DNA from: Klebsiella phage vB_KpnP_BUCT711
Strand: one strand, 5' to 3'
DNA: 38,367 nucleotides
Sequence record: OM816836.1
In this document: piece by piece, positions 34-36,290 of the stretch
Layout of the letters: every line of letters starts with the position of its first letter
Position numbering within the stretch: position 1 is the first letter of the stretch
Notes under the pieces: model-generated
Told to the model about the DNA's origin: nothing
Database searches by the model: none
Seen by the model: the letters and a program-made list of their open reading frames with translations, nothing else
Made by a program: the position numbers and the translations under genes

Positions 34-363
34 TTACATGATCGGAATATCATCATCACTCACCCACCCGGCCCGGTTTATCAGGTAGGTAACGACACCC
101 CGCACTTCAACATCGTCCAGGGCTTCCCCTTCCAGCGCCTCACCATCATCAGTGATCAGCGCCTGCCCACGGACGACAGCGAATTCAGTTTTCCCGGCAT
201 ATGCGATAAGGACATGATCACCCTGCGTTGGCCTGCGGCAGACATCGACGATGGCATAACCGGCGGCAGTCTCCAGGGCGCGACAGTTGGCGTCATACTG
301 ACAAAGGCGGGAAACGGTTAGCGTTTGCTCAACGTAGTCTGCGGCAGGTGATGGAAAACCCAT
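34..363 (-). CDS. UmuD'-like S24-peptidase-fold protein; catalytic Ser/Lys apparently missing; starts at the position where mature UmuD' begins
   Basis: Starts M-GFPSPAADYVEQ, identical to the UmuD segment just after its Cys24/Gly25 cleavage site. C-terminal blocks QGDHVLIAYAGKTEF and VRGVVTYLINR align with the LexA/UmuD beta-core. No G-D-S-M serine motif, and K replaced in FAVVRG. SD GAGGT 6 nt upstream of ATG at 363; the longer track start at 408 has no RBS. Confidence 0.7.
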   Translation of the reverse strand: MGFPSPAADYVEQTLTVSRLCQYDANCRALETAAGYAIVDVCRRPTQGDHVLIAYAGKTEFAVVRGQALITDDGEALEGEALDDVEVRGVVTYLINRAGWVSDDDIPIM

Positions 364-381
364 GATGACCTCACATAAAAA

Positions 382-401
382 TACTGTATATTTAAACAGT
401 A
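382..401. promoter_or_regulatory. LexA (SOS) box TACTGTATATTTAAACAGTA upstream of the UmuD'-like gene
   Basis: CTGT(384-387)-N8-ACAG(396-399), a perfect match to the enterobacterial LexA consensus taCTGT(at)4ACAGta. Lies between a -35-like TTGACT (minus strand, 419-424) and the RBS. Confidence 0.75.
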
Positions 402-2532: not shown

Positions 2533-3213
2533 TTAGATGTTATTTGCGAGAAGGCAGAATGCAGTTGCAGCCACGATTGGAACTTGTGCATTTCCAATGG
2601 CTCTGTACCTATCCACCCTAAAGGGAACCCCATCAACCAAGATTGATTCTGGGGAGTAGGTATCCCAAACGCTATGGTGAAATTTCTTGCTGATTCCCAC
2701 TTCTGCATTGACTCTGCCGAGTAATTCGCTTTCGTGGTCGGTGTATGCAAGTAGCCAAAATCTTTCCCGTATGTGGTCAGCACCCATGTCTTTCGCGGAA
2801 AGTTGAACCGCCCTGGTTTTGTAACCCATTGCAATGAGGTCGGTTGCGGCGATGGTGATAGCGTCTTTAGTGACGTTTTCTGCAAAGACAAGACCTGGCT
2901 TAACTTCACTAACGATTCGACGCATTTCTGGCCACATGCTTTTTGCAGTAATTCTTCCTCTTGATGCTTTGCTAAATGCCTGGCATGGAAATCCGCCAGA
3001 TACGATGTCAACAATTCCTCTCCATGGCTTTCCGTCAAAACTGCACACGTCAGACCAAATCGGGAAAGGCTGGAGAATTCCATCGTTTTGTCGTTGCGCG
3101 AGAACTTGTGCGGCGTAGGCATCACGTTCAACTGCGCAAACTGTTCGCCAGCCAAGGAGGTGTCCGCCGAGTATTCCTCCGCCAGCGCCTGCGAAAAGAG
3201 CCAACTCATTCAC
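2533..3213 (-). CDS. DNA (cytosine-5)-methyltransferase, orphan (Dcm-like); GTG start
   Basis: Motif I FAGAGG, motif IV GGFPCQAFS, ENV, motif X AIGNAQVP. GTG at 3213 has SD GGAGGT 5 nt upstream and places motif I near the N-terminus. The track's longer start at 3285 overlaps the upstream gene by 80 nt and is rejected. Confidence 0.85.
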   Translation of the reverse strand: MNELALFAGAGGGILGGHLLGWRTVCAVERDAYAAQVLAQRQNDGILQPFPIWSDVCSFDGKPWRGIVDIVSGGFPCQAFSKASRGRITAKSMWPEMRRIVSEVKPGLVFAENVTKDAITIAATDLIAMGYKTRAVQLSAKDMGADHIRERFWLLAYTDHESELLGRVNAEVGISKKFHHSVWDTYSPESILVDGVPFRVDRYRAIGNAQVPIVAATAFCLLANNI

Positions 3214-3859: not shown

Positions 3860-4204
3860 TTAGAACTCTTCGACCTTCCACCCGCCGCCGGCTTTTGCCG
3901 GGAGCTTCGTTACTCCGATGATCCGGAATGGGTACTGGTCGGCGGCGACTTTGGTTTTCACCCTGGCATCGTCAGTCCAGAACCCTTTCACCTCATGCAA
4001 TTCCATCTGGCCGTTTGCCAGCATCACTGCGAAGTCAGGCGTGTAGAACGTGTTGTCAGCCAGACGCAGCTTGATGCCTTCGAACCGGTACCAGGCGATT
4101 TCCCCGTAGCGCCTACGCAGTTCAAGCTCTTGCGCATACGCCGTTTCGGTTTTGTTCATCTGGCCAGCTTTAAGCCGGCCAAGTGCCTGTAGTGTCTTTC
4201 GCAT
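3860..4204 (-). CDS. DUF1064-family phage protein
   Basis: 114 aa, MRKTLQALGRLKAGQMNKTE...; resembles the DUF1064 family seen after lambdoid replication genes (from memory). Confidence 0.6.
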   Translation of the reverse strand: MRKTLQALGRLKAGQMNKTETAYAQELELRRRYGEIAWYRFEGIKLRLADNTFYTPDFAVMLANGQMELHEVKGFWTDDARVKTKVAADQYPFRIIGVTKLPAKAGGGWKVEEF

Positions 4205-4209
4205 GATTT

Positions 4210-4224
4210 TTACCTTATTGGTAA
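4210..4224. promoter_or_regulatory. operator-like palindrome TTACCttattGGTAA
   Basis: Perfect TTACC-N5-GGTAA 6 bp upstream of the DUF1064 start codon. Confidence 0.6.
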
Positions 4225-4271: not shown

Positions 4272-4286
4272 TTACCTTTTTGGTAA
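4272..4286. promoter_or_regulatory. operator-like palindrome TTACCtttttGGTAA
   Basis: Perfect site; identical 15-mer to the sites at 6402 and 34570. Confidence 0.6.
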
Positions 4287-6099: not shown

Positions 6100-6333
6100 T
6101 TAACGTTCGTGGAACCAGAGGACCAGGTCGGATTTTGCGGAGATCCACTTACGGGATTTGCAGGCTTTAAACAGTCTTTCTAACAGAGGCTTACGTGGAA
6201 TTCTTCTACGGCCAGTCAGGTGAACCTGAATGTAGTGGCTGGTCGTGCCGGCGTCACTTGCGAACTCTTCTCGCTCAGCCGGCGAGAGGTCGAGCCAGCA
6301 GCGTTTGAAGTCAAATTTTTGCACATCGCTCAT
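6100..6333 (-). CDS. Cro/YdaS-like HTH DNA-binding protein (first gene of leftward early operon)
   Basis: 77 aa from ATG at 6333 (MSDVQKFDF...); HTH-like EFASDAGTTSHYIQVHLTGRRRIP; divergent from the repressor across the operator cluster. Confidence 0.6.
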   Translation of the reverse strand: MSDVQKFDFKRCWLDLSPAEREEFASDAGTTSHYIQVHLTGRRRIPRKPLLERLFKACKSRKWISAKSDLVLWFHER

Positions 6334-6371
6334 ATTTTTTAGTCCCGGACTAACTTTAGACAGCCTGATTA

Positions 6372-6386
6372 TTACCAATCTGGTGT
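6372..6386. promoter_or_regulatory. imperfect operator TTACCaatctGGTgt
   Basis: In the divergent immunity intergenic region; left half plus extension ATTATTACC conserved. Confidence 0.45.
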
Positions 6387-6401: not shown

Positions 6402-6416
6402 TTACCTTTTTGGTAA
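6402..6416. promoter_or_regulatory. operator TTACCtttttGGTAA
   Basis: Perfect palindrome in the divergent cro/repressor intergenic region. Confidence 0.7.
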
Positions 6417-6418
6417 GT

Positions 6419-6433
6419 TTACCTTTATGGTAA
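6419..6433. promoter_or_regulatory. operator TTACCtttatGGTAA
   Basis: Perfect palindrome, centre 17 bp from the 6402 site (tandem operators). Confidence 0.7.
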
Positions 6434-6486: not shown

Positions 6487-7068
6487 ATGAAAAGCATCTA
6501 CGACATAAGGCGCGACAACCTCAACGAGATAATCCGGAAGGATTTCGATAACACGCAACTCCGGTTTGCCGAGAGAATCAAAAAATCAGCTAACCTCGTT
6601 AACAGGTGGAGCAAGGGAACAAAAAATATCGGCGCTAACGCGGCACGCGAGATCGAGTCGTTCGCCGGGAAAGGTCGGTTCTGGCTGGATATCGACCATC
6701 TGTCAGATACCCCGACGCTGCCGGAGATTATCGACCCGCAGGAATGGAGTGTGGAAAAACAGGCAGCGTTTACCCTGGGTGTATGGATGGGTCAGCATTC
6801 GGATCTGAACTCAGAGAAAAAGGTTTCGGAAGCGGCCGGCATCGGCCAGGCGACCGTAAATCGCATCCTGAACTGCGAAGGCTCCACCAGCATTGGCGTA
6901 CTGTCGGCTATCGCCAGGGCGTTCGGCCGCGATGCATATGAGCTGATCCTGCCGCCTGGAAATGCTGGTCTGATTGACTATGACCACCATGAATACGCCG
7001 GGCTGCCGCAGGAAGAGAAAAACAAGATCGCCGCCTTCATCAAGTTCATCGTCAGCCAGAACCAGTAA
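6487..7068 (+). CDS. prophage repressor candidate with two XRE-type HTH domains and no S24 peptidase domain
   Basis: HTH1 QLRFAERIKKSANLVNRWSKG; HTH2 KVSEAAGIGQATVNRILNCEG. Sits in the cI position, divergent from the cro-like gene, flanked by operator clusters. Weak or absent SD (possibly leaderless). Confidence 0.65.
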   Translation: MKSIYDIRRDNLNEIIRKDFDNTQLRFAERIKKSANLVNRWSKGTKNIGANAAREIESFAGKGRFWLDIDHLSDTPTLPEIIDPQEWSVEKQAAFTLGVWMGQHSDLNSEKKVSEAAGIGQATVNRILNCEGSTSIGVLSAIARAFGRDAYELILPPGNAGLIDYDHHEYAGLPQEEKNKIAAFIKFIVSQNQ

Positions 7069-7123: not shown

Positions 7124-7138
7124 TTACCAAAATGGTAA
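7124..7138. promoter_or_regulatory. operator TTACCaaaatGGTAA
   Basis: Perfect site upstream of the -35 of the rightward (PL-like) promoter. Confidence 0.65.
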
Positions 7139-7159: not shown

Positions 7160-7188
7160 TGACACAACCATAAATTGATCAGATTATT
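7160..7188 (+). promoter_or_regulatory. sigma70-like promoter for the plus-strand recombination operon
   Basis: -35 TTGACA (7160-7165), 17-bp spacer, -10 GATTAT (7183-7188); overlapped by the operator at 7187-7201. Confidence 0.5.
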
Positions 7189-7201
7189 ACCTTAACGGTA
7201 A
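7187..7201. promoter_or_regulatory. operator TTACCttaacGGTAA
   Basis: Perfect site overlapping the -10/+1 of the promoter above. Confidence 0.65.
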
Positions 7202-14532: not shown

Positions 14533-16866
14533 TCACACTTTAACTATGCTTGAAATATTTACATCGATAGGTGTTAACCCATCGGTTTCAATAAGTACTG
14601 AGTTTGTTTTATTGGTAGCAGTAAAAGTGAGGCTGGTAGCAGTCTCAAGTTCTCCCTGCGTAATAATGTAGCCTAAGCCAGATGCAGCACCTCTGATATA
14701 AACATCGCCTGTTGATGAGTTATTTCTAACCCATGTAACCTTGTAATTATTACCAACAGTCAAATATTCTATGTTTATATACACACGCGCTTTTGTAGTT
14801 GCTGGAGTAACAGTGATATGTCTTCCGTCGACAGTTAATGTTCCATCGTAGCCAGATGGGATACCGACGTTTAGCGGGCTGTAATAATCATCAAGTTGCA
14901 CCTGTGACTGATTTATAAAATCGATATCAGAAGGCATAAGACCAACCCCAAACCAGCACCTGTCAATGTGAACATACTCGCCTACAGTGCTGCCTGGGAT
15001 AAGACGAATCTGCAGGGTGGTAATGGTTTTAGGTAATAATGCGTGGCAGACAACCCACATCCAGCCGTTTTCTGCCTCATTGGCTTTAGTCCTCGATGTA
15101 ACAGCAGTCATTCCTGTCCCAGATATCTGAAGACGACCTGCGTTTGTAGAAAGACCAGAGTTTTTCCAGATACGAGCAGCAAAGGTCACCCATTGCCCTT
15201 TAAAGGCAAAAAGATAATCACTGAGATCACAATAAAAAAGAGGAGAAGATGTGTTCAAAACTTCAGCTTTTACACTGAACGCAAAAGAATCTCGTCGGGA
15301 AAGATCTCGAGAAACAGCTACTGAGTTCACTGCCCATGAGACTGGTAAAGACGAAAGCCAGGAGTTAAATGCCGGGTTTGGCGCAAGGTTCGGGCGCAAC
15401 GGTCCTGTATACGTCTCAATAACTTTATCAAACTGGAATGCAGGATTGTCGTTCAGCGCCTCTATTGCCACCCCTGCCCACACGTCCATGCCAGCTGCAT
15501 TAGGATGGATAAAGTCGGTATACAGGCTTTCTGGGACACCCAACTCAATGAACTTTGAATAGACATCAATGATACCAAGTCCCTGCACCGCGGCGACCTT
15601 AGCCCAGGCGCTAACAGCTCGCGCTGAATGGTCTGGAAAATCACGCCGCGGGTTCTGTGCCGTAACAATAACAGGAGCACCTGGATTATCTTGCTTCACA
15701 GCAAGAACACCCTCTGTAAATCCTGCCTGAATTGTCAACTCAGGAACGGTTGTCCCTTCATTGTGACCATAGTTTAAAATGACCAGGTCATAAGTTCGAC
15801 CGGAGTTATAGATTTGCGAGCGCATCGCTCCCTGGTAATAACGCTCTGTAGAACCAGGAACAGACACGTTATCAATATAAATTGATCTGCCTGTTGTACC
15901 TGTACTCATTACGATTTCGGGATCCCATCCAGAGCCATCAACAAATAAGCGATAGCGTACACTATGAGTGGGATATTTAGATGCAACCCATGTTGACCAT
16001 TTATAAACCCACTCGAAATCTGAGTTCCCCGTCGAATCACCAAGAATAATAATATAAGCATCTGCCTGCGCGCTTCGCACCTTCTGCCACAATGGAGCTA
16101 CATGAGGCAATGCTTTCGTTAAGTCTAAATATTCTGACACTGTATTACCCTCATGATGACCGATATAAATAGAACCAGTTGGTTTAGCCAATTCAATAAG
16201 CACATCCGCAGCACTGCCACTTTCAGGCAAAACCATAAGTGGATCGCCATTATTATCCATGGCAACTATTTTGTTTTTTCGAAAATCCTTAGCAGGAAGT
16301 ATTGATATTGCGCTTTCAGGCACTCTCATTGTTCTTTTAAACAAATCATCTGAATGGCCTATCGCAGCTGCGTTTAGAGTATCTGTATATTTTTTTGTTG
16401 CAGCATCCTGATCCTGAGATGGGTCACGTAGGTTACGAATACGATTGTTGAGTGCGTCGTAATAGTTAGCGAGCCATGACGGCTTCCTGAGAGATAGCCC
16501 AGACCACCACCCGTATGCCTGCTGAACAAGCATGGTTAGTTTATCGAGAGCATCTTCATGGATCTCCGGGAAAAAGCCACCCTGGTTCCTGATGCTGGCT
16601 TCCTGCGTAACCGGAGTGCTGCGCTCGATAGAGATTTTGTAACCAGCTGGCAGCGCCGATGTCAGCACCACCTTACCCCCGTTGTAGCGGTTCACGCCGG
16701 TAACCGTGTAATCGGTGCCGAGCGTCAGCGTCAAGATGTTTTCGGAGGTATCCAGCGTCTGCACCAGCACGTGGCTTTTATCCAAGATGCGGAACGTGAA
16801 ATCGTATTGGGTAGTGGCGCCGTTACCGGTGTACTCGTTACGGCTTACCTGCGTTGAAACTGTCAT
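14533..16866 (-). CDS. tailspike/tail fiber with T7 gp17-like N-terminal adaptor and central SGNH (GDSL) esterase domain
   Basis: N-term MTVSTQVSRNEYTGNGATTQYDFTFRILDKSHVLV. GDS(T) block IIILGDSTGN (aa ~276), GHNE block, DFIHPN block V. The C-terminal ~300 aa is predicted beta-rich (receptor-binding). Confidence 0.8.
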   Translation of the reverse strand: MTVSTQVSRNEYTGNGATTQYDFTFRILDKSHVLVQTLDTSENILTLTLGTDYTVTGVNRYNGGKVVLTSALPAGYKISIERSTPVTQEASIRNQGGFFPEIHEDALDKLTMLVQQAYGWWSGLSLRKPSWLANYYDALNNRIRNLRDPSQDQDAATKKYTDTLNAAAIGHSDDLFKRTMRVPESAISILPAKDFRKNKIVAMDNNGDPLMVLPESGSAADVLIELAKPTGSIYIGHHEGNTVSEYLDLTKALPHVAPLWQKVRSAQADAYIIILGDSTGNSDFEWVYKWSTWVASKYPTHSVRYRLFVDGSGWDPEIVMSTGTTGRSIYIDNVSVPGSTERYYQGAMRSQIYNSGRTYDLVILNYGHNEGTTVPELTIQAGFTEGVLAVKQDNPGAPVIVTAQNPRRDFPDHSARAVSAWAKVAAVQGLGIIDVYSKFIELGVPESLYTDFIHPNAAGMDVWAGVAIEALNDNPAFQFDKVIETYTGPLRPNLAPNPAFNSWLSSLPVSWAVNSVAVSRDLSRRDSFAFSVKAEVLNTSSPLFYCDLSDYLFAFKGQWVTFAARIWKNSGLSTNAGRLQISGTGMTAVTSRTKANEAENGWMWVVCHALLPKTITTLQIRLIPGSTVGEYVHIDRCWFGVGLMPSDIDFINQSQVQLDDYYSPLNVGIPSGYDGTLTVDGRHITVTPATTKARVYINIEYLTVGNNYKVTWVRNNSSTGDVYIRGAASGLGYIITQGELETATSLTFTATNKTNSVLIETDGLTPIDVNISSIVKV

Positions 16867-16964
16867 AGTCTGCTCCAGTGGTCAGCGCTGGCGCGCGTGT
16901 ATAGAAGCATTCTATTACCCATCAAACCATATATGAATAAAACAGATCAAAACGAGCAAAAACA

Positions 16965-16979: not shown

Positions 16980-17005
16980 ATAAAAACCTTCTGGAAAACC
17001 CTGTT

Positions 17006-17025
17006 ACCTTTTGATATATGTATAT
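17006..17025. promoter_or_regulatory. near-consensus LexA box TATGTATATATATACAGTAT
   Basis: ATGT-N8-ACAG with an (AT)4 spacer; 19 of 20 match to the E. coli consensus; about 30 bp upstream of ORF 17054. Confidence 0.5.
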
Positions 17026-17053
17026 ATATACAGTATTTATCGGAGTAATCCTA

Positions 17054-17314
17054 ATGCCAGAGCGGTACCAGTATCCTGTCGACGAAGGTTTTGCAGATCG
17101 TATTCACACCCCGGAAGGGGTCAGATCCCTGGTTGTAAAATCACAGCTGATGGAGTTGCTCAGGGAAATGGAGCGAGACGGCCACGATGTCAGCGGTGCG
17201 GCGGCGGAACTGGTGGCACTGGTTAACTATGTGACAAGTTCGCAGTTGTCGATGCGGGAGCTGCAAACACACCTGGATTTCTGCGCAATGCAGTTGCGGC
17301 AGCAACTCAGATAG
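17054..17314 (+). CDS. hypothetical small protein in immI-equivalent position (candidate antirepressor)
   Basis: 87 aa from ATG at 17054 (MPERYQYPVDEGF...), SD GGAGT; LexA-like box and an operator upstream. Confidence 0.5.
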   Translation: MPERYQYPVDEGFADRIHTPEGVRSLVVKSQLMELLREMERDGHDVSGAAAELVALVNYVTSSQLSMRELQTHLDFCAMQLRQQLR

Positions 17315-17376: not shown

Positions 17377-17391
17377 TTACCGTATTGGTAA
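17377..17391. promoter_or_regulatory. operator TTACCgtattGGTAA
   Basis: Perfect site upstream of ORF 17443. Confidence 0.6.
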
Positions 17392-17442: not shown

Positions 17443-17778
17443 ATGAGCAGAAGATATAGCAAAGAGCTGGCTTTAGAGTCAGGGAGCCCTTTGGGTATCG
17501 CTCCTCGCTCTGACTACTCCGGTTTTGTGAAAAGAGACTCATCAACCGGCAAGTTCCTCGAACAAGATATGCGGGTGGTCGGTGATGACTTACGTAGGTC
17601 CGCAACGACCATTTATAAAAAGTACATCATAAAAGATGGGAAAAGAGTTGATGCCCCTCAAGGAAAGATGTTTGCCGTAACTCTACATAAGGAAGGTCTT
17701 GATGCTGCCGGAACACCAAAATCAAGTTCCCCAAGATACGACAAATACGCCAGACTTTACTGGCAAACAAAGCGATAA
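17443..17778 (+). CDS. hypothetical protein
   Basis: 111 aa from ATG 17443 (SD GAGG); overlaps the next gene by 80 nt in another frame. Confidence 0.4.
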   Translation: MSRRYSKELALESGSPLGIAPRSDYSGFVKRDSSTGKFLEQDMRVVGDDLRRSATTIYKKYIIKDGKRVDAPQGKMFAVTLHKEGLDAAGTPKSSSPRYDKYARLYWQTKR

Positions 17779-18247
17779 CCCCGAATTTGAAGAAGTCGAG
17801 GAAGATCTAAGTAAAGAGATCATTGAACATCCGGATGCTTTTTCGCGTGTGCTCGACAGGCCTGAAATTCAAGAAATCGTTGTTGCTCACCACGCATTTC
17901 AAGGCCCGCTACCTCCTCCATATCTTTTACGTGGGTATCAGGAAATCTTACCTGATGCCCCCGAGCGTATCTTTCAACTAACGGAGAGAGAATTTGCTCA
18001 CAGGCATAAGATGGAGGAAAAAGCACTTGATGGCGCCATCAACAGGGATAAAAGAGGACAGCACTACGGTCTAGGCGCTACAATCTTTACCGTCGGTTGT
18101 GCCACCGTCTTAGGCCTGACCGGGCATGAAGTGTTGGCAGGAACGGTCATCGGCATAGTAGTTGCAGTAGCTTGTATTTTTGTTCTCAGGCAAAAACCAA
18201 TCATCAAAAAGAAGCCAGAGAATAACGAAAAACCTGATGAAGAATAG
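17699..18247 (+). CDS. DUF2335-like membrane protein
   Basis: Strong SD AAGGAAGG. Acidic N-terminus; LRGYQEILPDAPERIFQLTEREFAHRH...GLGATIFTVGCATVLGL motif (DUF2335 as remembered); C-terminal TM. Confidence 0.55.
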   Translation: MMLPEHQNQVPQDTTNTPDFTGKQSDNPEFEEVEEDLSKEIIEHPDAFSRVLDRPEIQEIVVAHHAFQGPLPPPYLLRGYQEILPDAPERIFQLTEREFAHRHKMEEKALDGAINRDKRGQHYGLGATIFTVGCATVLGLTGHEVLAGTVIGIVVAVACIFVLRQKPIIKKKPENNEKPDEE

Positions 18248-18338
18248 CCCGGGCCACGGTCTTTTTGATGGATGAAATATCAGCCAAGCGCTACAATCAT
18301 AAAGCCACGGTTCAGTGGTCTACACATGGTAAGTGAAA

Positions 18339-18491
18339 ATGAAAAAAGCATTAGCAGTGCTGTTTGTTCTGTTGTCTATGGGTTCAGCTACACAAGCTTT
18401 CGCTGGTAACTGCCAGCATCCTGATGATACTGCAGCTGATGGCTCACGCTGTGGCGGCCGTTCTGCTGACTCCCGCCCCGGCGGTCAGTGA
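18339..18491 (+). CDS. small secreted peptide (50 aa), not in track
   Basis: MKKALAVLFVLLSMGSATQAFA signal peptide, then a 28-aa Gly/Asp-rich peptide with 2 Cys; terminator immediately downstream. Confidence 0.4.
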   Translation: MKKALAVLFVLLSMGSATQAFAGNCQHPDDTAADGSRCGGRSADSRPGGQ

Positions 18492-18498
18492 TAATTAA

Positions 18499-18524
18499 GG
18501 CCGCGAAAGCGGCCTGTTTGTTGG
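18499..18524 (+). terminator. rho-independent (bidirectional) terminator between convergent genes
   Basis: GGCCGC gaaa GCGGCC followed by TGTTTGTT. Confidence 0.55.
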
Positions 18525-19025: not shown

Positions 19026-21500
19026 TTATTCCGGCGTTACGTCCTGCGGTCGCCACCAGTATGTCTGGTTGAACTGTTTCTTGGATCTCTGCTCTACCTT
19101 GCGCAGATATCCAGGAGAAAAGTATTCCTGAAGCTGGTTAAATATCATATGGTCAAGCGCAGCTTTTGCATACCAAAGATTGGCACCGGGGATAAGGCCC
19201 TTGCCGAGTTTAACCAGATCACCACCTGTCTGTTCCGGCTTTCCTTCAACGGCATTAAGCGGGATGCCCTGCGCCAGCTTAACCACGTCATCAACCAGAC
19301 CAGCCACAGGCCCCAGCATTGACGCCAGCGCGCCACCACCGTAGCGCGTATGGTCAGAAAGCAGGAAGTCACCATAGAGGCCAAGACCACCACCTTTCAG
19401 CAGCGCGCCGAGCCAGAATTTACCAGCATCCTTCCCGACCATCTCTCGGGGATTCCTCCCGGATGCCATGTCGTTTAGCTGCTGAGACAGCGCGCCGAGC
19501 ATCGTGGTGCTGGCGAGGAATGCGGCGATATAAGCGGCCCGGCCGCCAGCGGAAGGCATGCCCATTGCACGCGTCCAGTGCCGCAGCACAACAGAGATCG
19601 GAAACGATTTGAATAGGAAAACCGAGCGGGTTAACTCGCCTTTCCATGTTCCGCGCTGCAGGCCACCACCAGTAAAAAGCTGCTCACGCGCGCCAGGCGT
19701 AATCACCGCCATGTCGACTTCTTCAGATACTGCGGCCAGCAGCCGGCGCATGGCCTCAAACCTTACTCGTTCCGGGAGCCCTAAGTGCATTACAGCAGCA
19801 TCAGGGATCCGCATAATGCTTTCCGGAGTGAGCATGGTCGTATTGCCGTTACCCCAGTCCTCCTGTTGCGCCAGCTTCCATACACTGAAGTCCTGCTCGG
19901 TGATTCCTTTGCTTTTCAGTATGCGAAAATCGCTGTCGTCAAGGCTCCGCAGATCAGGGGCCCTGCTGACCACTTCCCCAAGGCTTCCCATCATCGTCAC
20001 GCCGTAGGCACGTTTGTGCGCATCCGTCCATGCTGTCAGGCCGCTAGCGCGCATCACCGCCGTTGCCGCCCAGCGGGAAACCGACGGTCCCATATTGTCC
20101 ATCGCCCAGCGGTTAACGCTGCCGAGCAACGATTCCATAGCCAGCCCAGCGCGACGGGCGCGGGCAAGCTCCATGCGGTTCGCCGGGTTCATGGCCTCAA
20201 GCTGGTTCATAAATAGTCGGTTCATCGGGATGTTCGCTACCTTCGCCGACATATACATCGTGCCCAGGTCAGAGAATGAAGCCAGCAGCGCGGAACCAAG
20301 TCGGCTCGCCACCATCCAGTTTCGGATGTTGTCCGACCATCGTGCGATGTGCGGATTAGCGATCGGCTGCGTCTTCCCGGCGATAAAGTTGTAAAGGTTC
20401 TCGGTACTGTTGGCCAAGCGCTTAATCCTGCCAGTGCGCTCAGGGTTGGCAGTGGCCTGTTCAGCCGTAACCTCGTCCAGGATAGAGCGGAAAACGTGAT
20501 CGGGGTTCGGGCCGTATGTTTCAACCAGCGCGATATCTTTGCTGATACCTTCAAGGTGCCCGACCATTACTTCCCACAGAGAGCGATCGCCATATTCTCG
20601 CTGATACTCAAGGTAGGAGTCTGCGTCTTTGAAGTGGATCTGACGGGATGCATTACCGCGATTAGAGCGCGCGCCGGAAATGCGCATGCCGGTATCGCTT
20701 AATTTGTTCAGCCCGCCGGTGGCGATGGTGTTGTATGCCTCGCCCAGGAAGGTTGTCAACTCAGCATCGCTCATCAGCTGGCCGTCATCTTTGATGTAGT
20801 ACTTGCGATCCAGTTTGTCGATGACGTCGCTAACCCACTTATCCTGCGGAACCCTGCCGACTTTCTCCATCGAGTGGTGCTGAGGGATGCCCCAGTTTTC
20901 CAGGTAGCCTATATCACCACCAGCGTCATTGAATCGCTGGCGAAGCAATTCAGTAACGCCAGCCCATGCTTTTGCGCCCTTCTTAGCCCTGACGTTGCCA
21001 GTGTCCTGCCCGCGCATCTCGTAAACCAGATCGCGCACGCTGGCCTCGTCCTCAAACAGGTGGAAGAATCTCGGGTCTACCGCTTCAAATGCTTCCTGAA
21101 TCTGGCTTAGTGCATAGTCGCGTGTGGCTTTGCCGCGTGATTCTACCGACAGGAAATTTGATTTCCCGTCAGCGTGAAAGGCGATGGTCCGGTTAAGCGC
21201 CTCAAGCTTGCCGTCTTTCCCCTGGTAGGTCTTTATGAAGGCGTCGAGCCGCTGCCTGGCTGCGATGGTGAGTGCCACGCGGCGCTTCTTCAGCGCAGCT
21301 TCGTTAGTGAGTTCGTTCGCTGCTAACTGCCCGGCTCGGCGCAGCCGTTCGGCGTCAGTCATCGCCCGCCACGAAGCCGGATCATTGCGGGCCAGTTGCC
21401 GCATGTTCCGGTAAATACGGTCTTCAATATTCTTGATTTCCTGCTGCGTGAGTCGGCGGCTTGCGGCCTGCTGCACGGCGTTAATACATTCCTGACGCAT
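19026..21500 (-). CDS. internal virion/ejection protein (T7 gp16-like position)
   Basis: 824 aa, last of three giant genes preceding the tail fiber. Confidence 0.6.
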   Translation of the reverse strand: MRQECINAVQQAASRRLTQQEIKNIEDRIYRNMRQLARNDPASWRAMTDAERLRRAGQLAANELTNEAALKKRRVALTIAARQRLDAFIKTYQGKDGKLEALNRTIAFHADGKSNFLSVESRGKATRDYALSQIQEAFEAVDPRFFHLFEDEASVRDLVYEMRGQDTGNVRAKKGAKAWAGVTELLRQRFNDAGGDIGYLENWGIPQHHSMEKVGRVPQDKWVSDVIDKLDRKYYIKDDGQLMSDAELTTFLGEAYNTIATGGLNKLSDTGMRISGARSNRGNASRQIHFKDADSYLEYQREYGDRSLWEVMVGHLEGISKDIALVETYGPNPDHVFRSILDEVTAEQATANPERTGRIKRLANSTENLYNFIAGKTQPIANPHIARWSDNIRNWMVASRLGSALLASFSDLGTMYMSAKVANIPMNRLFMNQLEAMNPANRMELARARRAGLAMESLLGSVNRWAMDNMGPSVSRWAATAVMRASGLTAWTDAHKRAYGVTMMGSLGEVVSRAPDLRSLDDSDFRILKSKGITEQDFSVWKLAQQEDWGNGNTTMLTPESIMRIPDAAVMHLGLPERVRFEAMRRLLAAVSEEVDMAVITPGAREQLFTGGGLQRGTWKGELTRSVFLFKSFPISVVLRHWTRAMGMPSAGGRAAYIAAFLASTTMLGALSQQLNDMASGRNPREMVGKDAGKFWLGALLKGGGLGLYGDFLLSDHTRYGGGALASMLGPVAGLVDDVVKLAQGIPLNAVEGKPEQTGGDLVKLGKGLIPGANLWYAKAALDHMIFNQLQEYFSPGYLRKVEQRSKKQFNQTYWWRPQDVTPE

Positions 21501-34569: not shown

Positions 34570-34584
34570 TTACCTTTTTGGTAA
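34570..34584. promoter_or_regulatory. operator TTACCtttttGGTAA between portal-side genes and the tRNA
   Basis: Perfect site, identical to 4272 and 6402; a conserved half-site ATTATTACC lies at 34504-34512. Confidence 0.6.
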
Positions 34585-35075: not shown

Positions 35076-35321
35076 ATGAATATTGACCTCGGATATTTCC
35101 AAAACGTGTTCTTCAACGTGGCCTCTGACTTTCAGATTACTTCTGAATGCATGCGTGAACCGAGTGTTTTGTACAGACCGACACTTAGTCAGGATGGAGA
35201 TAAATGGCTTGCGATATATGGCGACCTGCCAACCGGAGTTGTCGGCGTAGGTAGCACCCCAGAAGAAGCCATGCGGGAATTCAACAAAGCATGGTTAGCG
35301 CCGGCAACAAAAGCCGCCTAA
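35076..35321 (+). CDS. HicB-like (UPF0150-fold) small protein, orphan
   Basis: DGDKWLAIYGDLPTGVVGVGSTPEEAMREFNKAWL matches the HicB N-domain pattern ..G.Y.A.VPDLPG..G.T.EEA...EA...WL; SD GGAGAAAAGT. Confidence 0.5.
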   Translation: MNIDLGYFQNVFFNVASDFQITSECMREPSVLYRPTLSQDGDKWLAIYGDLPTGVVGVGSTPEEAMREFNKAWLAPATKAA

Positions 35322-35498: not shown

Positions 35499-36290
35499 AT
35501 GTTAGAATCACTTAAAGAATTCACGACATCGACATTCAACACAGCAATGAATCGCGTTAAGAACCCTGCATTCGGTGCTTTCGCAATTTCATGGTGCGCA
35601 TTTAACTGGAAGCAAATACTTTATTTGTTTTTTGCTGATAACGGAATTTATTACAAAATAGAATATATTTCTCAAAATAGCAGTTGGTGGAGCGTAATTA
35701 TTTTACCTGCATTCTCGTCACTTGTTTTATGTGTTGGTTTACCATGGGTTAATAATGCTATAACGAAATGGCAAAGCAAGCCTCTTGACAATGCAGATTC
35801 AATTGAGAATTTCAAGCAGGCGCGCATGATTCAACGCTCCACGCGATTGCAGCGCCTGAAGGCCAAGCATGACGTGACTTACGACAGAGTTAAAACTGGC
35901 GCTGAAAAAGATATCCAATCAATGAAAGAACAAATAACTGAATCTCAGGCAAGAATGGGCGAGCTTACCAGTGAACGAGACGAGTTACGTAAAAAAATAA
36001 ATTTTTTAAATAAAGAAATTCAAAACCTTAAATCAAATATTGAGGACGCAAATTCAATTATCACTGAGAAGAATGAGCGCATTAGCCAGCTTGAAAACTC
36101 AAGAGAATCTTTATTGGCACAATTTAATCTTGACAATGCATCACAACGCACTCCGCTTGCAACGGCTCGAATATCTCCAACAGGTAGCAATATCGATATC
36201 TTAAATAGAAAAATTGACTCTTTATCAAGAAATGGCTACGACTTAAATAAAGAGCTTGCGATAAAAAATTCGGAAAACAAAAAAAATTAG
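35499..36290 (+). CDS. membrane-anchored coiled-coil protein (AT-rich moron; exclusion/abortive-infection candidate)
   Basis: Two N-terminal TM helices then about 170 aa of heptad-like K/E/N-rich sequence; markedly AT-rich versus the genome; own promoter and terminator; stop overlaps the TerL stop convergently. Confidence 0.55.
   Translation: MLESLKEFTTSTFNTAMNRVKNPAFGAFAISWCAFNWKQILYLFFADNGIYYKIEYISQNSSWWSVIILPAFSSLVLCVGLPWVNNAITKWQSKPLDNADSIENFKQARMIQRSTRLQRLKAKHDVTYDRVKTGAEKDIQSMKEQITESQARMGELTSERDELRKKINFLNKEIQNLKSNIEDANSIITEKNERISQLENSRESLLAQFNLDNASQRTPLATARISPTGSNIDILNRKIDSLSRNGYDLNKELAIKNSENKKN

Follow-up and report, generated by a model that had tools for sequence, protein, structure and literature searches.

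How a prophage whose main repressor carries no cleavage domain could still respond to DNA damage is the question raised by a small gene of Klebsiella phage vB_KpnP_BUCT711. The whole stretch of 38,367 nucleotides (sequence record OM816836.1) was analysed and is called the window here. By its gene content the window is a complete epsilon15-like (Uetakevirus-type) podovirus prophage, with terminase, portal, major head protein, three large virion proteins, an integrase and a lambdoid-style early region. At the DNA level, only three Klebsiella prophage records resemble it among known phages. The original prediction held that the small gene encodes an antirepressor, derepressed through LexA, whose target is a repressor that cannot be cleaved. 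Our analysis supports this, as orthologs are so described in Salmonella phage SPC32H, while LexA control in the window is predicted. The locus likely serves this epsilon15-like prophage as its antirepression module and is the ortholog of the Ant/Rep/LexA switch known from SPC32H. That switch was reportedly worked out by Kim and Ryu in 2013 and Kim et al. in 2016, with structures in PDB entries 5D50 and 5D4Z. The coordinates of the features are collected in Table 1.

Table 1. Features of the ant locus, the rep locus and related sites in the window
Feature	Position	Strand	Description
ant	17054..17314	+	86-aa antirepressor, SPC32H Ant ortholog by homology and synteny
Shine-Dalgarno GGAG	17042..17045	+	8 nt before the ant ATG; read from the sequence
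LexA-like box ATATGTATATATATACAGTA (ATGT-N8-ACAG)	17016..17035		aligned with the SPC32H LexA box (alignment A1)
Candidate ant promoter P1	16992..17020	+	TGGAAA (16992-16997), 17-nt spacer, TG (17012-17013), TATATG (17015-17020)
Alternative candidate P2	17011..17039	+	TTGATA (17011-17016), 17-nt spacer, TATTTA (17034-17039)
Rep operator TTACCATTAAGGTAA	16965..16979		starts 89 nt before the ant ATG and 12 nt before the candidate -35
Second Rep operator near ant	17377..17391		overlaps the -10 of TTGACG-16-TAAGAT, putative promoter of the next plus-strand cassette (17443..18491)
Cassette gene	17443..17778	+	phrog_10654, function unassigned
Cassette gene	17702..18247	+	DUF2335 membrane protein
Cassette gene	18333..18491	+	52-aa protein with signal-peptide-like N-terminus
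Terminator	18498-18515		after the plus-strand cassette
rep	6487..7068	+	193-aa repressor, SPC32H Rep ortholog; no S24 autocleavage domain
Two adjacent Rep operators	6402-6416, 6419-6433		in the gap separating rep (+) from the cro-like gene 6100..6378 (-)
Rep operators	7124-7138, 7187-7201		downstream of rep, ahead of recombination genes (PL-like)
Rep operators	4210-4224, 4272-4286		upstream of the DUF1064 gene 3860..4204 (-)
Canonical LexA box TACTGTATATTTAAACAGTA	382-401	-	overlaps the -10 of the minus-strand promoter TTGACT-17-TACTGT; best LexA site in the window

The ant gene and its cognate repressor

The ORF holds 86 codons and a stop, so the length of 87 aa first given for its product has to be corrected. 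As in SPC32H, Ant thus has 86 aa, and it is 65% identical to SPC32H_020 'ant' over 84 of the 86 residues (E 7e-42). It also matches chain 5d50_E, 'Anti-repressor protein', of the Rep-Ant complex 5D50 (E 2.5e-33). A full-length match to phrog_450 is found (1e-44), together with matches to phrog_15539 and, weakly, to the C-terminal end of phrog_1760 'anti-repressor'. The Pfam search assigns Ant to no family, and in particular to no P22-Ant/Bro-type domain. Using Ant as the query, tblastn retrieves 34 phage records, including epsilon15, phiV10, SPN1S, TL-2011b, Tyrion, SPC32H and SPC32N; the gene is labelled 'ant' in the last two. The location expected for ant, between a virion-protein gene and the tailspike gene, is confirmed. 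Its flanks are the gene of an 824-aa virion protein (19026..21500, minus strand) and a tail fibre/spike gene whose product has a T7-tail N-terminal domain (14533..16866, minus strand). The same slot is used in SPC32H, with ant again divergent from the tailspike gene. The second G of the Shine-Dalgarno motif (17043) is invariant in the alignment of upstream regions described below (A1), and the remainder of GGAG is present in most sequences.

The repressor of the window matches chain 5d50_A, 'Repressor', over residues 1-192 (E 2.5e-76) and is 63.5% identical to SPC32H 'rep'. In the Pfam search Rep gives HTH_3 and HTH_26 only and no Peptidase_S24. The main repressor therefore lacks a cleavage domain as had been proposed, and this is likewise so for SPC32H Rep. 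Homologs of Rep are present in 36 phage records, nearly the same phage set as that of Ant. Ant and Rep are orthologs of the SPC32H pair, and we infer that this Ant binds this Rep.

An observation on the neighbouring spike concerns its enzymatic domain. Besides the T7-tail-fibre N-terminal domain it carries a GDSL/SGNH-type esterase domain (Pfam Lipase_GDSL_2, residues 330-461), so the spike may destroy its receptor by deacetylation and not as a glycosidase.

Operators of Rep

The motif TTACC-N5-GGTAA occurs in the window in nine exact and four one-mismatch copies. These 13 copies compare with 0.59 expected, and the operator proposed upstream of ant is therefore real. Since the same motif is found at equivalent positions of SPC32H, it is assigned as the Rep operator. 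The pair beside rep recurs in the intergenic region upstream of SPC32H rep (positions 2415 and 2432 of that locus, L091). The operators downstream of rep have their equivalents at 3156, 3218 and 3294 of L091, and those upstream of the DUF1064 gene at 788 and 850.

At ant, the operator lies at -87 to -92 from the ATG in every clade, with few exceptions among the related loci, and also in SPC32H. In the window it is about -55 from the likely ant start and is also upstream of the divergent tailspike promoter. We infer that this conserved operator adds Rep-dependent control, a feedback, to ant. A minus-strand promoter-like sequence TTCATA-17-TAGAAT is seen at 16909-16937 upstream of the tail fibre/spike gene, and its blocks tatatgaat and attctattaccca are common to SPC32H. 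With its position 27 nt upstream of the -35 of this spike promoter, the operator may serve both divergent promoters.

An operator downstream of ant, at +291 to +379, recurs in several clades. A Rep loop around ant between 16965 and 17377 was considered and rejected, because the downstream operator is missing from SPC32H and many other loci. It tracks the presence of extra downstream genes, and assigning it to the promoter that follows is thus the better reading. Here the window differs from SPC32H, where ant stands alone and is not followed by an additional plus-strand cassette with a predicted Rep-controlled promoter. The cassette would be repressed by Rep in the lysogen, which is not as expected for a lysogenic-conversion gene. 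Similarity to the nearest relative stops at operator 17377-17391, and other genes are found there in the relative, including a 'putative anti-repressor'. A further exact Rep operator, TTACCTTTTTGGTAA, is located at 34570-34584 in the gap between portal and terminase, right after a TTGACG hexamer. Two plus-strand ORFs with unassigned function lie near it, 35076..35321 and 35499..36290 (phrog_4780).

The LexA-like box and the candidate ant promoters

The string TATGTATATATATACAGTAT occupies 17017-17036. In a fixed-register comparison with the 20-nt LexA consensus TACTGTATATATATACAGTA, the box at 17016-17035 shows three mismatches, at positions 1-3. Within the 16-nt core CTGT-N8-ACAG one mismatch is found, where A at 17018 replaces the nearly invariant C of CTG. 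The single mismatch originally claimed is thus correct for the 16-nt core, or with a 1-nt deletion, and incorrect for the fixed 20-nt register. The site reads ATG-N10-CAG in place of the canonical gammaproteobacterial CTG-N10-CAG, with spacer and right half at consensus. Matches to the 20-mer with up to three mismatches number two in the window against 0.00 expected from shuffles. Cores with one mismatch are no more frequent than chance predicts (12 against 12.05 expected), so it is the perfect right half and the (TA)n spacer that give the signal.

At the position aligned with the window box, SPC32H carries TACTGTATGTTTATACAGTG; the box thus sits where the LexA box of SPC32H is. The corresponding stretches of SPC32H and SPC32N (L002 and L003, positions 2780-3010) show two differences. 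One falls within the tailspike gene; the other, a C to A within CAG shortly before ant, turns TACTGTATGTTTATACAGTG into ...ATAAAGTG. Kim and Ryu are said to have described SPC32N in 2013 as SPC32H with two nucleotide differences. Constitutive Ant reportedly results from one of these two changes, which lies in the LexA box that overlaps the ant promoter, and the mutant box is said to have lost LexA control. The sequences compared here agree with this account of two nucleotides.

To score the sites, we used a heterology index with a matrix derived from E. coli boxes. On this matrix the window site has an index of 5.9 in forward and 7.9 in reverse orientation. The SPC32H box scores 2.3-3.5, and the SPC32N mutant box, with 7.6 and 6.4, is close to the window site. 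In a scan of the window, the box at 382-401 ranks first (1.4) and the ant box second, followed by a next best site at 12.1. The index leaves the window site unseparated from the SPC32N mutant box and so cannot decide whether the site binds LexA and functions. With ATGT as its left half instead of CTGT, LexA control of ant is likely, judging from the sequence, and is possibly weakened.

A scan for consensus promoters called no ant promoter. P1 and P2 were both drawn from the conserved columns of A1 alone. The invariant blocks in this alignment are the Rep operator, CTGGA about 12 nt past the operator, T.TTG.TA and the box. In the same register, SPC32H and the clades with a canonical box have TGGATA-17-TACTGT (TG-n-TACTGT), an extended -10 promoter with its -10 inside the box. 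In the window the box would overlap both candidate promoters.

The canonical box at 382-401 was also considered as the real SOS input. Its promoter drives a gene for a 109-aa UmuD'-like protein at 34..363 on the minus strand (phrog_3469). Inspected by eye, its sequence begins as cleaved UmuD' does (GFPSPAADYVEQ), and the catalytic Ser/Lys motifs are missing. Homologs occur in lambdoid Klebsiella and E. coli phages, for example mEp390, and are absent from SPC32H. This gene is a UmuD'-like accessory that SPC32H does not have, hence it is not the antirepressor, and the candidate was rejected.

Conservation of the box among related loci

We gathered 91 loci encoding Ant relatives and compared their upstream regions (alignment A1); a scan of genome contigs for Ant relatives gave seven loci. 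The box is found at the same aligned position in all clades. Its form is ATGT-N8-ACAG in 66/91 loci. These belong to the Klebsiella clade, with 74-100% Ant identity, apart from a single locus with 70% and a prophage of Superficieibacter with 64%. In 61 of these 66 the spacer is the exact consensus ATATATAT, despite diverged flanks. The canonical CTGT-N8-ACAG is present in 17/91 loci, with variable spacers and Ant identities of 60-65%; these are of Salmonella, E. coli, Citrobacter, Scandinavium, Pseudocitrobacter and Erwinia types. That the ATGT form and the consensus spacer are kept across diverged loci argues for constraint rather than decay. The ATGT form is, as judged from the alignment, an old and maintained state and not a recent lesion.

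Related prophages sit integrated in many Klebsiella genomes, such as K. pneumoniae ATCC 13883, and IMG/VR holds 372 related stretches, clinical isolates among them. This integration in many genomes makes the ATGT form compatible with stable lysogeny, and it fits an ant gene that is not constitutively on.

Two kinds of altered boxes are seen among the related loci. In L030 and L047, 2 nt are missing from the spacer (ATATAT in one, ATTTTT in the other), leaving ATGT-N6-ACAG. This loss would break both the spacing of the LexA half-sites and that of the promoter. In L044, L054 and L059, an ISL3-family transposase gene interrupts the box within its (TA)n (L059 181..1401, minus strand; Pfam DDE_Tnp_ISL3, 1.9e-55). 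Lost with this insertion are the Rep operator, the candidate -35 and the left half-site. These three prophages may be locked, or their ant may be under new control.

Proposed mechanism and alternative readings

In the lysogen, Rep, which would not be cleavable through RecA, is proposed to shut the lytic promoters at the TTACC-N5-GGTAA operators. Host LexA would occupy 17016-17035, overlapping the core ant promoter, and would silence ant. Upon DNA damage, self-cleavage of LexA would allow ant transcription. By analogy to the solved SPC32H complex, an 86-aa Ant tetramer would bind Rep dimers and split the DNA-binding Rep tetramer, and the break-up of this tetramer would induce the prophage. The passage of PMC7380047 that cites Kim and Ryu 2013 gives the same order: LexA self-cleavage, Ant synthesis, repressor inactivation. 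The one paper found for a Klebsiella relative, on prophage PKp4865-1, is purely in silico and includes no induction experiments.

The main question about this mechanism is whether LexA still reads the ATGT box. It probably does, possibly more weakly. In a different reading, which we regard as rather unlikely, ant is indeed the antirepressor of Rep, and the box of the Klebsiella clade has no useful LexA binding. Ant would be kept off mainly through the upstream Rep operator or another factor, and induction would be SOS-independent, leaky or triggered by another signal. The A in place of C in CTG speaks for this reading, and so does a heterology index close to that of the SPC32N box on the E. 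coli matrix. All clades have a Rep operator 12 nt before the candidate -35, and in mobile elements a non-canonical SOS box often goes together with a regulator encoded by the element itself (PMC8265657). However, diverged loci keep the right half and the spacer exactly at consensus, which would hardly be expected of a site that LexA has ceased to read, and the N8 spacing and the orthologous position are retained. With its centre about 55 bp before the likely start, the Rep operator is not placed where a repressor classically occludes a promoter. Furthermore, the dinG operator of E. coli shows that a non-C first base can work: it is a functional LexA box with the left trinucleotide TTG and a perfect right half ATACAGTA (Lewis and Mount 1992; PMC8265657). 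The dinG box has T where the window site has A, and dinG is a chromosomal gene. A variant that we also hold to be doubtful is that, in the Klebsiella clade and a few other lineages, ATGT-N8-ACAG is a deliberately weakened LexA site whose remaining positions are all kept at consensus. LexA and Rep would then co-repress ant, and Ant, by removing Rep, would give rise to more ant. Joint control by LexA and an element's own regulator is reported for mobile elements with atypical SOS boxes (PMC8265657). The review by Fornelos et al. 2016, as cited in a passage of that paper, concerns non-canonical boxes of this kind, and the locus here likewise has an atypical box near the repressor site of the element. 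For the ant promoter of the window, a concerted effect of the two repressors is a hypothesis.

Two other readings put the gene outside an Ant/Rep/LexA switch altogether. The ORF could be an unrelated small accessory gene, a 'moron', and the AT-rich palindrome a promoter or (TA)n low complexity to which no regulator binds. The chance frequency of one-mismatch CTGT-N8-ACAG cores would fit, as would the (TA)n slippage variants in L030 and L047. This is very improbable, since the homology of the ORF to a solved antirepressor, with 65% full-length identity, already contradicts it. Moreover, the cognate repressor is encoded in the same genome, and the site aligns with the SPC32H LexA box. The least credible reading is an immI-type arrangement, in which adjacent small Mnt/Arc-like repressors, and not LexA, control ant. 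In P22, the immI slot (ant, mnt, arc) adjoins the tailspike gene. The equivalence to immI suggested in the original prediction holds for this genome position, an antirepressor gene beside the tailspike in a podovirus genome, and for nothing further, as Pfam finds neither a P22-type Ant nor a Bro domain in the protein. The Ant of P22 is unrelated and far larger, and it is controlled by Mnt and Arc. No Pfam or PHROG regulator family is found among the neighbouring small ORFs of the window, and SPC32H ant has no regulator gene beside it.

Relation to known antirepression systems

The orthology to the SPC32H switch extends from the two proteins to the regulatory sites, with TTACC-N5-GGTAA operators at the same positions and an SOS-type box at the same place before ant. 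In contrast, the left half of the box is ATGT here and CTGT in SPC32H, and the host is Klebsiella.

The antirepressor Tum of coliphage 186 is credited to Shearwin et al. in 1998, and those of the Salmonella phages Gifsy/Fels-2 to Lemire et al. in 2011. Kim and Ryu reportedly found SPC32H Ant to be structurally distinct from Tum/Gifsy-type antirepressors. The likeness to these systems that had been suggested is one of circuit logic only: according to a passage of PMC7380047, a small LexA-repressed antirepressor acts there on a non-cleavable repressor as well, while the phage types differ.

The system is thus an already known one. What is new is a Klebsiella member with a conserved atypical left half-site, biologically an extension of a known system and not a new one. 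The SPC32H switch, characterised both by experiment and by structure, would also be the induction circuit of a widespread K. pneumoniae prophage family. This leads to a direct prediction for the induction of Klebsiella prophages by DNA-damaging antibiotics. If LexA and Rep do co-repress ant, the induction threshold would be unlike that of SPC32H. The conserved atypical LexA half-site would provide a natural test of how operator strength relates to the induction threshold.
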